From NCBI RefSeq assembly GCF_003334305.1, contig NZ_QOWS01000001.1: a stretch of 64,000 bases of DNA, one strand, 5' to 3'. The notes beneath the pieces are model-generated. The model made no database searches. It was given only the letters and a program-made list of their open reading frames with translations, and had not been told where the DNA came from. The DNA is from Escherichia coli (lineage in GTDB: Bacteria; Pseudomonadota; Gammaproteobacteria; Enterobacterales; Enterobacteriaceae). The number at the start of each line of letters is the position of its first letter. Within the stretch, counting starts at the first letter, position 1. The translations under genes and the position numbers were made by a program. This document shows, in pieces, positions 16,040 through 34,306 of this stretch.

Positions 16040-16066
16040 CCCCCTCATGATGAGGGGGCTTTTTTT
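16040..16066. terminator. Bidirectional rho-independent terminator between yehA and rcnB
   Basis: CCCCCTCA-TGAGGGGG hairpin flanked by T-run; overlaps the rcnB stop codon. Confidence 0.7.
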
Positions 16067-16403
16067 AGCGATGATAAAAAATCTCACCGTCGTAGGCTTT
16101 AATGATTTTACCGTCGGTGTCGCTGATCAACACGTACGCGCCACCCATATAGGTCCAGTGCGTCCCGGCATCAGGCGCGGGCAGGTTACGTAACTGCCAC
16201 TGCTTAATGTTGTACTCATCGGTGCGGTACATCTCTGGGACGGTATCGCCTGGTTTGAAATGCTTAAAGTCAGCAATGAAACTGCTTAACTCATACTTAG
16301 AAATTCCCGAGGTATTGGTCGAACCCGCGGTGGCTGGTGCGGCCCAGGCGGCACTGGTAACCAGCAAAAGCGCACCCAGCAACATCTTATTTTTAATGGT
16401 CAT
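16065..16403 (-). CDS. rcnB: Periplasmic protein of the Ni/Co efflux locus
   Basis: 112 aa from MTIKNKMLLGALLLVTSAAWA (signal peptide) inside the 172-aa ORF; downstream of rcnA on the same strand. Confidence 0.8.
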   Translation of the reverse strand: MTIKNKMLLGALLLVTSAAWAAPATAGSTNTSGISKYELSSFIADFKHFKPGDTVPEMYRTDEYNIKQWQLRNLPAPDAGTHWTYMGGAYVLISDTDGKIIKAYDGEIFYHR

Positions 16404-16621: not shown

Positions 16622-17446
16622 TTATCGCATTATGCCCATGAAGCCATGTACGCCCATATACACACCAACTAAGCCAATCAACAGACTGGAAAAATAGGGG
16701 GCGCGTTTAGCGAGAGTGTTAAATCCGCTCCAGCGTTTTGCGACCTGCTGAACGCTGATTGCTGCGCCAACGCCTACGGTGACCAGCGTTAACGCCAGGC
16801 CAATGCTGAAACTGACGACCAGTGTTGCGCCCAGTGTCAGGGCTTTCAACTGAATGCAAATCAACAGCACGGTAATTGCTGCCGGGCAGGGGATAAGGCC
16901 ACCGGTTAAGCCAAATAGCAAAATTTGCCAGTTGGTGACCTCTCTACCATCAAAGCGTCGTTTAATGTCATTGGCATGGGCTCGTGCATGGGCATCCTGA
17001 TACTCGCCATGTTCGTGATGGTGATGATGTCCATGGTCGTGGTGATCTTCGTGATCGTGGTGATGATGTTCATGATCATACTCGTGCATATTCTCCAGCC
17101 AGTTGCGTTCGCCGCGCCAGGTACGCCAGAACATCCAGAACGCGGTGCCAATAATGATCACTGCGGAAATCAGCTGGAGCCACGGTTCTGCTGATTGAGC
17201 AGTAAAGCGCTTGCTGATCACCATCCCGCCAAAGGCAATTAACCAGACCACTGCGGTATGCGAAATAGTTGCTGCCAGTCCGAGCATCACCGCTTGTTTA
17301 ATGGTGCCTTTGATGGCGATGATAAACGCCGCCATCATCGTTTTTGAGTGCCCTGGTTCCAGGCCATGAAGCGCACCAAGTAAGATGGCGCTGGGGATGA
17401 AGAACCAGGCGTTTCCTTGCTGAAGAAGAGTTGTAAATTCGGTCAT
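16622..17446 (-). CDS. rcnA: Nickel/cobalt efflux membrane protein with His-rich loop
   Basis: 274 aa; central loop HEYDHEHHHHDHEDHHDHGHHHHHEHGEY; multiple hydrophobic segments. Confidence 0.9.
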   Translation of the reverse strand: MTEFTTLLQQGNAWFFIPSAILLGALHGLEPGHSKTMMAAFIIAIKGTIKQAVMLGLAATISHTAVVWLIAFGGMVISKRFTAQSAEPWLQLISAVIIIGTAFWMFWRTWRGERNWLENMHEYDHEHHHHDHEDHHDHGHHHHHEHGEYQDAHARAHANDIKRRFDGREVTNWQILLFGLTGGLIPCPAAITVLLICIQLKALTLGATLVVSFSIGLALTLVTVGVGAAISVQQVAKRWSGFNTLAKRAPYFSSLLIGLVGVYMGVHGFMGIMR

Positions 17447-17483
17447 GATAATAATTCTTAGTATTAATTCGGCAATCTGATTC

Positions 17484-17518
17484 TACTCCCCCCCAGTACC
17501 TGATACTACCCCCCAGTA
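17484..17518. promoter_or_regulatory. Tandem RcnR operator sites in the rcnA-rcnR divergent region
   Basis: TACTCCCCCCCAGTA and TACTACCCCCCAGTA, both TACT-G/C tract-AGTA inverted repeats. Confidence 0.75.
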
Positions 17519-17566
17519 GATTAATAGTGCTATGATTTTTCATATTCTTGTTAACCAGGTGTTGCC

Positions 17567-17839
17567 ATGTCTCATACAATCCGTGATAAACAGAAACTGA
17601 AAGCGCGTGCCAGTAAGATTCAGGGCCAGGTCGTGGCGCTCAAGAAAATGCTCGACGAGCCGCACGAATGCGCTGCAGTTTTACAACAGATTGCTGCTAT
17701 CCGTGGCGCGGTAAACGGTCTGATGCGGGAAGTGATTAAAGGTCATCTGACGGAACACATCGTTCACCAGGGGGATGAGCTAAAACGTGAAGAAGATCTG
17801 GATGTCGTTCTGAAGGTGCTGGATTCATATATCAAATAA
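17567..17839 (+). CDS. rcnR: Ni/Co-responsive transcriptional repressor (CsoR/RcnR family)
   Basis: 90-aa ORF divergent from rcnA; sequence [53 protein letters not shown]. Confidence 0.9.
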
Positions 17840-17927: not shown

Positions 17928-18061
17928 CAACCAAACGACTCGGGGTGCCCTTCTGCGTGAAGGCTGAGAAATACCCGTATCACCTGATCTGGATAATGCC
18001 AGCGTAGGGAAGTCACGGACCACCAGGTCATTGCTTCTTCACGTTATGGCAGGAGCAAACT
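17928..18061 (+). promoter_or_regulatory. TPP (THI-box) riboswitch in the thiM 5' UTR
   Basis: Sequence CGGGGTGCCCTTCTGCGTGAAGGCTGAGAAATACCCGTATCACCTGATCTGGATAATGCCAGCGTAGGGAA matches the thiM aptamer; the downstream segment overlaps GGAGCAAACTATG (SD and start). Confidence 0.9.
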
Positions 18062-31628: not shown

Positions 31629-32408
31629 ATGACGATGAATTCATTCGAGCGAAGGAATAAGATCATCCAATTAGTGAATGAACAGGGAACCGTGCTTGTT
31701 CAGGATCTGGCGGGAGTATTTGCTGCCTCGGAAGCGACAATCCGTGCCGATTTGCGCTTTCTCGAACAAAAAGGCGTGGTTACGCGCTTTCATGGCGGTG
31801 CGGCGAAAATAATGTCCGGTAATAGTGAAACCGAGACCCAGGAAGTCGGGTTTAAAGAGCGATTTCAGCTCGCCAGCGCGCCGAAAAACAGAATAGCGCA
31901 GGCGGCAGTCAAAATGATCCATGAAGGGATGACCGTTATTCTCGACAGCGGAAGTACCACAATGCTTATCGCCGAAGGATTAATGACCGCCAAAAATATC
32001 ACGGTGATTACCAACAGTCTCCCGGCTGCGTTTGCCCTTTCCGAAAATAAAGACATTACTCTGGTCGTCTGCGGTGGCACGGTCCGCCATAAAACGCGAT
32101 CTATGCATGGATCTATTGCTGAACGTTCCCTGCAGGATATTAATGCCGATTTAATGTTTGTCGGTGCTGATGGTATTGATGCGGTTAATGGTATTACGAC
32201 CTTTAATGAAGGTTATTCGATTAGCGGTGCGATGGTCACCGCCGCTAATAAAGTGATTGCCGTTCTCGATTCATCGAAATTTAACCGTCGCGGTTTTAAT
32301 CAGGTACTGCCAATCGAAAAAATTGACATTATTATTACCGATGATGCTGTATCAGAGGTGGATAAACTGGCATTGCAGAAGACACGGGTAAAATTAATTA
32401 CGGTGTAG
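31629..32408 (+). CDS. gatR: DeoR-family repressor of the galactitol operon, uninterrupted
   Basis: 259-aa continuous ORF with N-terminal HTH (RRNKIIQLVNEQGTVLVQDLAGVFAASEATIRADLRFLE) and C-terminal DeoR sugar-binding-like region. Confidence 0.85.
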   Translation: MTMNSFERRNKIIQLVNEQGTVLVQDLAGVFAASEATIRADLRFLEQKGVVTRFHGGAAKIMSGNSETETQEVGFKERFQLASAPKNRIAQAAVKMIHEGMTVILDSGSTTMLIAEGLMTAKNITVITNSLPAAFALSENKDITLVVCGGTVRHKTRSMHGSIAERSLQDINADLMFVGADGIDAVNGITTFNEGYSISGAMVTAANKVIAVLDSSKFNRRGFNQVLPIEKIDIIITDDAVSEVDKLALQKTRVKLITV

Positions 32409-34279: not shown

Positions 34280-34306
34280 AAAAAATAAGCCCGTGTAAGG
34301 GAGATT
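34280..34306. mobile_element. P2-type att core (attL) at the prophage left junction
   Basis: AAAAAATAAGCCCGTGTAAGGGAGATT matches my recollection of the 27-bp P2 attachment core; lies about 80 bp outside the int stop. Confidence 0.75.

Follow-up and report, generated by a model that had tools for sequence, protein, structure and literature searches.

The two C-rich inverted repeats that separate rcnA and rcnR in the 64-kb stretch of Escherichia coli DNA analysed here (hereafter, the window) almost certainly constitute the canonical tandem operator of RcnR, a repressor that responds to Ni(II)/Co(II), in the form known from the reference strain K-12. This identification follows from exact matches to the RcnR motif, from the identity of both the region and the RcnR protein with those of K-12, from conservation of the sites across species, and from their adjacency to rcnR. 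The feature is real and had been read correctly from the sequence, and it is already known. No data contradicting the RcnR operator explanation were encountered.

Both repeats, TACTCCCCCCCAGTA (site 1) and TACTACCCCCCAGTA (site 2), lie inside the 120-bp rcnA-rcnR intergenic region (Table 1), within the sequence ...attcTACTCCCCCCCAGTAcctgaTACTACCCCCCAGTAgatt... Each is built from a 4-bp inverted repeat (TACT/AGTA) that flanks a 7-bp C-rich core, the tract being C7 in site 1 and A followed by C6 in site 2. The spacer CCTGA is 5 bp long, and the distance from the start of one site to the start of the other is 20 bp; accordingly, a repeat finder listed the two as direct repeats of 15 nt with 93% identity and a spacing of 20 bp. 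When read as reverse complements, site 1 is TACT-G6-G-AGTA and site 2 is TACT-G6-T-AGTA. A search of the 64-kb window with TACTNCCCCCCAGTA, allowing up to one mismatch, returned exactly two matches, sites 1 and 2, both of which fit the motif with 0 mismatches, and thus no third RcnR site was found in the window under these settings. The same search in 100 dinucleotide-preserving shuffles gave a mean of 0.00 matches, with no shuffle containing any match. The sequence-only reading of this DNA had described two C-tract inverted repeats 5 bp apart in an intergenic region spanning exactly the coordinates listed in Table 1, had named the flanking genes rcnA and rcnR, and had assigned the sites to the TACT-G6-N-AGTA type. 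Coordinates, spacing, tracts and the bounding ORFs were all confirmed, the gene names agree with the RefSeq annotation of 5364 E. coli genomes and of K-12 MG1655, and the reverse complements of both sites fit the consensus exactly.

Table 1. Coordinates of the rcnA-rcnR locus and its regulatory features in the window (strand "." denotes features given without orientation).
Feature	Position	Strand	Evidence or remark
rcnB, downstream gene of the rcnAB operon	16065..16403	-	Coordinate mapping to K-12 rcnB (2186960-2187298)
rcnA, Ni(II)/Co(II) efflux pump gene, repressed target	16622..17446	-	ORF with His-rich loop; RefSeq annotation
rcnA-rcnR divergent intergenic region, 120 bp	17447..17566	.	100% identical to K-12 MG1655 (NC_000913.3)
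rcnA major TSS	17473	-	27-nt 5'UTR, 25 reads; -10 TAGAAT (17485→17480)
RcnR site 1, rcnA-proximal, TACT-C7-AGTA	17484..17498	.	Motif match; TACT+C7 in 76/84 species loci (columns free in the search pattern)
rcnA minor upstream TSS	17494	-	48-nt 5'UTR, 12 reads; putative -10 TAGTAT (17508→17503)
Linker CCTGA	17499..17503	.	Positions 1-4 variable (40-70% column identity); last base A in 83/84 loci
RcnR site 2, rcnR-proximal, TACT-A-C6-AGTA	17504..17518	.	Motif match; N = A in 84/84 species loci (N left free)
rcnR TSS	17544	+	23-nt 5'UTR, 11 reads; extended -10 TGcTATGAT (17528-17536)
rcnR, CsoR/RcnR-family Ni/Co-responsive repressor, 90 aa	17567..17839	+	Protein identical to K-12 RcnR

The product of rcnA is a 274-aa membrane protein, and the translated rcnB ORF contains the signal-peptide start MTIKNKMLLG. 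The RcnR translation shows His3, Cys35, His60 and His64, the H-C-H-H ligand set by which the RcnR type is defined (PMC11672702). Comparison with K-12 MG1655 (NC_000913.3; rcnR b2105, rcnA b2106) revealed zero differences over the intergenic region and both start codons. All 120 bp, the genes, RcnR, the spacing and the orientation are therefore the same as in the K-12 rcnA-rcnR operator, a tandem type-1 operator of the CsoR/RcnR family, and the sole local difference between the two loci lies in RcnA, where five of the 274 residues are substituted. An Rfam scan of the 64 kb detected no RNA element within the intergenic stretch that separates rcnA from rcnR; its sole match was a TPP riboswitch (RF00059, 71.2 bits) at 17931-18027 on the + strand, directly downstream of rcnR and upstream of thiM/thiD. 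The tRNA scan of the same 64-kb window found no tRNA genes.

According to three articles (PMC7055735, PMC3902906, PMC7105576, citing Iwig & Chivers 2009, J Mol Biol 393:514, and Blaha et al. 2011, Biochimie 93:434), RcnR sites have the form TACT-G6-N-AGTA and occur in tandem in the rcnA-rcnR region, each site is bound by a single RcnR tetramer, and RcnR is released from DNA by Ni(II) or Co(II). Two of these sources (PMC7055735, PMC3902906) assign RcnR binding to these bases by footprinting and mutagenesis, and a shared operator serving both rcnA repression and rcnR autoregulation is described in the literature. Binding and metal response are thus taken from published work on the K-12 sequence, with which the window is identical. 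The type-1 features found in the window are the motif fit, the tandem pair in a divergent region, the adjacent RcnR-type gene, the identity with K-12 and the overlap with promoters. By contrast, type-2 CsoR operators, such as those of Streptomyces lividans and of B. subtilis CsoR, contain a pair of short G/C tracts interrupted by 2-4 bases; their repeats stand about 11 bp apart, and each site takes up two tetramers (PMC3902906). Assignment of the window sites to type 2 was rejected: each has one unbroken C6-C7 tract, with 7 bp from TACT to AGTA, and one tetramer per site is reported for such sites (PMC3902906).

The form of the operator present in the window is also the prevailing one in E. 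coli. A 401-bp query around the sites matched 5364 of 5426 complete E. coli genomes, and in all of them the flanking genes are annotated as rcnA and rcnR in RefSeq. Of the 5360 matching records, 4398 are identical over the 66 bp from 17470 to 17535, and 4861 over the 35-bp core comprising the two sites. Where the sampled E. coli variants differ outside the core, they do so by flanking point changes, while nearly all of the differences inside it are changes of ±1 in the C tract of site 1: exactly C6 in 247 records and exactly C8 in 230, together ~9% of about 5360. These two versions account for the 474 E. coli records that differ from the core at one position. A linker reading CATGA was considered as the source of the ~470 one-difference variants and was rejected, being present in 20 E. 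coli records only. Changes in the site-2 tract, which almost never varies, and C9 runs are confined to rare records. The window itself carries C7 in site 1, i.e., the majority and reference allele, and neither C6 nor C8. Several genomes among the C8 matches listed are O121 strains, a hint that the allele is genuine and tied to a lineage, the alternative being an assembly error in the homopolymer; the K-12 derivative ER2683 shows C6 in site 1. A change in the length of site 1 would alter both the spacing of the RcnR half-sites and the spacer of the rcnA promoter.

For comparison beyond E. coli, one genome per species from 100,044 species was scanned with the pattern CCCCCCAGTA-N(4-6)-TACT-N(0-1)-CCCCCCAGTA. 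The scan yielded 84 loci, from Enterobacterales, Vibrio, Shewanella and Chromobacterium; since they were collected through the motif itself, they indicate that rcnR accompanies the motif, but not that the motif accompanies every rcnR. The tandem pair was found in Escherichia, Citrobacter, Enterobacter, Klebsiella, Raoultella, Kosakonia, Cedecea, Rahnella, Tatumella, Erwinia, Hafnia, Serratia, Buttiauxella, Yokenella, Salmonella, Vibrio, Shewanella and Chromobacterium. When the RcnR and RcnA of the window were used as tblastn queries, an RcnR homologue (58-100% identity) was located no more than 99 bp from the sites in 80 of the 84 loci, the other four being cut at the locus edge. RcnA was located within 86 bp of the sites in 76 loci; five of the remainder are cut at the edge, and three, all from Shewanella, lack an adjacent RcnA homologue.

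Within the 84 loci, the N of site 2 is invariably A, and the last base of the linker is A in all but one. The tract of site 1 is C7 in 77 loci, C6 in five and C8 in two, and it is preceded by TACT in 82 of 84. The linker measures 5 bp in 67 loci and 6 bp in 17. In the subset of 58 loci that could be aligned without gaps (57 distinct sequences), the TACT+C of site 1, the N of site 2 and the T of the -10 element are 100% conserved, as compared with 40-70% for linker positions 1-4 and 30-80% for the flanks. At the level of these columns, the pattern is a clean phylogenetic footprint, and the difference between C7 and AC6 is, by the same comparison, a conserved ancestral state rather than a peculiarity of the strain. 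The asymmetry to which the sequence-only reading had drawn attention is therefore present as described, but it is no departure from the reference and simply corresponds to the N position of the consensus. The special interest attached to it did not survive the comparison with the K-12 operator that had been proposed as a check: the sites proved base-for-base identical, the outcome that the same reading had named as its refutation.

Transcription start sites of rcnA and rcnR in K-12 have been determined by genome-wide 5'RACE (Kim et al. 2012, PLoS Genet, Table S1), with low support of 11-25 reads per site, and since the sequence is identical, they can be mapped straight onto the window (Table 1). 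The -10 hexamer of the major rcnA promoter, TAGAAT, has TA in common with the outer AGTA of site 1, and TAnnnT occurs at the corresponding position in 82 of the 82 species loci with enough flank, its final T being 100% conserved. On the - strand, TAGTAT (17503-17508) is composed of the N of site 2 (T), the AGTA of that site and a T contributed by the linker; its flanking T's are conserved in 84 and 83 of the 84 species loci, respectively. This hexamer occupies the -35 position of the major rcnA promoter, and it probably also serves as the -10 element of the minor rcnA TSS at 17494. Downstream of site 2, the extended -10 pattern TGnTAnnnT is found 7-11 nt after the site in 51 of 84 species loci, and is kept in the plasmid and Salmonella copies.

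Some further promoter candidates were considered and rejected. A generic sigma-70 scan proposed a -10 element ending at 17448 on the - strand and another at 17575-17580 on the + strand, inside rcnR, neither of which suits the mapped TSSs at 17473, 17494 and 17544. The hexamer TAGATT abutting site 2 (17517-17522) resembles a -10 element in many species, but its role as the -10 element of rcnR is unproven; the TSS fits TGcTATGAT, located 9 nt further and conserved at a fixed offset. A larger imperfect dyad (17472-17487 / 17515-17530; 16-nt arms, 75% complementary) embraces both sites. Read outward, the outer flanks are AGTAGAAT and AGTAGATT, so that a -10-like hexamer abuts each site, and only the one on the rcnA side matches a mapped TSS.

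Relative to the mapped starts, site 1 covers positions -25 to -11 of the major rcnA promoter and site 2 covers -45 to -31; with respect to the rcnR promoter, site 2 extends from -40 to -26 and covers the -35 region. From this sequence and the published TSSs, we infer a geometry of promoter occlusion. A metal-free RcnR tetramer would occupy each TACT-G6-N-AGTA site, and the start-to-start distance of 20 bp, about two helical turns, would place the two sites on the same face of the DNA. Because both sites overlie core promoter elements of the two divergent genes, RcnR occupancy would be expected to exclude RNA polymerase from rcnA(B) as well as from rcnR, with all three promoters occluded, an arrangement that agrees with the published shared operator. 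Binding of Ni(II) or Co(II) to RcnR would then lower its affinity for DNA, and both genes would be derepressed, as is established for the identical K-12 sequence according to the articles cited above.

The overlap between operator and promoter invites the question of whether the repeats are mainly promoter architecture or a DNA structural element, e.g., A-form G-tracts or slippage-prone homopolymers, the match to the RcnR motif being secondary. The rcnA -10 hexamers do overlap the sites or fall inside them, the tract length of site 1 is polymorphic, and the N of site 2 is conserved asymmetrically together with the adjacent linker base, which a symmetric tetramer does not obviously require. Nevertheless, conservation of the TACT...AGTA dyads and of the C6 tracts goes well past what -10 and -35 hexamers require, an rcnR homologue stands beside the motif in every locus with available flank, and the published footprinting and mutagenesis (PMC7055735, PMC3902906) place RcnR binding on these very bases. 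Moreover, the promoter and operator readings are compatible, since a repressor site normally has promoter elements inside its operator. A mainly structural or promoter role is for these reasons very improbable. Still less credible, to the point of being negligible, is the proposal that the operator of the window strain is a functionally distinct variant in which the C7/AC6 difference shifts the affinity or site preference of RcnR relative to the reference. It is true that the two sites differ at one position and that length variants of site 1 exist elsewhere in E. coli (the C6 and C8 records counted above). For the window, however, this proposal is refuted by the identity with K-12 MG1655 at every base of the intergenic region and throughout the RcnR protein, and the C7/AC6 combination is the majority state both among E. 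coli records (4861 of 5360) and among species (76 of 84).

The canonical RcnR operator thus remains the preferred reading, and a joint interpretation that adds to it may be put forward tentatively, as a possibility on the doubtful side. According to it, the N base would be site-specific and under selection (on the G strand, G in the rcnA-proximal and T in the rcnR-proximal site); the T, together with a conserved flanking T, would build TAGTAT as the -10 element of the upstream rcnA promoter and/or the -35 element of the major one; and the length polymorphism of site 1 would tune basal Ni/Co efflux between lineages. The conservation of N is plausibly explained by this promoter hexamer. The points that go beyond established knowledge are mild, namely the invariance of N within each site, the polymorphism of site 1 (~9% of E. 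coli assemblies, 7 of 84 species) and a third site in some genera, and none of them is specific to the window.

In practical terms, the window strain has a standard control region for Ni/Co efflux, and consequently its regulation of rcnA should match that of K-12. From E. coli to Vibrio, Shewanella and Chromobacterium, the operator has been kept as a whole unit comprising both sites, the identities of N and the embedded -10 hexamers. The length of the rcnA-proximal homopolymer could act as a natural knob on the expression of nickel/cobalt efflux, which is relevant for the use of PrcnA/RcnR as a metal biosensor part.

Related modules are found on plasmids. Those of IncHI2 and related large plasmids of Enterobacter, Klebsiella, Salmonella and E. 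coli contain the same divergent pair, with identical sites 5 bp apart, but differ from the window in overall DNA identity (~76%), in the linker (AAATA), in the flanks and in a longer RcnA (encoded by a 1116-bp gene in pMS7884A). The IncHI2 plasmid and Salmonella Senftenberg copies, with a DNA identity of only 74-76%, have diverged in linker and flanks but still contain both sites. In total, ~860 plasmid records, mostly of conjugative plasmids, contain rcnR-rcnA-like DNA (Enterobacter 312, Klebsiella 231, Ralstonia 111, Salmonella 49, and others). The rcnA copy on the E. coli plasmid p21AR0133A is split, and its annotation is that of a pseudogene. The Senftenberg copy resides on 'plasmid 2' (727,905 bp, non-mobilizable), where site 1 is TACT-C6-AGTA and the spacing of the sites is 19 bp; this 728-kb record may be a chromosomal fragment rather than a plasmid. 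In S. enterica diarizonae, site 1 has C7.

Three-site rcnR operators occur in Enterobacter, Klebsiella and Kosakonia. They possess the same sites 1 and 2 and, unlike the window, an additional RcnR-like site that separates site 2 from the rcnR -10 element. The third site is either TACTCAGGGGGAGTA (a G5 tract, on the opposite strand) or AACTCCCCCCCAGTT, and the extended -10 element has moved to 26-27 nt after site 2. This arrangement was observed in 13 Enterobacter/Klebsiella loci and in six loci of Kosakonia and its relatives, the RcnR proteins of which share ~62% and, in most of the Kosakonia group, ~86-89% identity with E. coli RcnR, respectively. The three Shewanella loci have the tandem sites and an rcnR homologue (~67% identity), with flanking sequence available and no RcnA homologue on the opposite side; the gene regulated there may be a different transporter. 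One of these three loci has A-C6 in both sites.

At a larger scale, positions 1-34297 of the window are collinear with K-12 2203362-2167812 at ~98.5% identity. The collinearity ends at 34297, equivalent to K-12 2167812, which is the edge of the cryptic P2 remnant PR-X/ogrK. The remaining part (34298-64000) is occupied by a P2-like (Peduovirus) prophage that reaches or passes the end of the window; it is ~97% identical to Escherichia phage vB_EcoM-720R8 over 79% of a 19.7-kb query, and it resembles P2-like phages of Yersinia and Salmonella. Within the collinear part, at ~31931-31933, the IS3E element that interrupts gatR in K-12 MG1655 (2170171-2171428) is absent and the K-12 flanks are joined directly, and therefore gatR is probably intact in the window strain.
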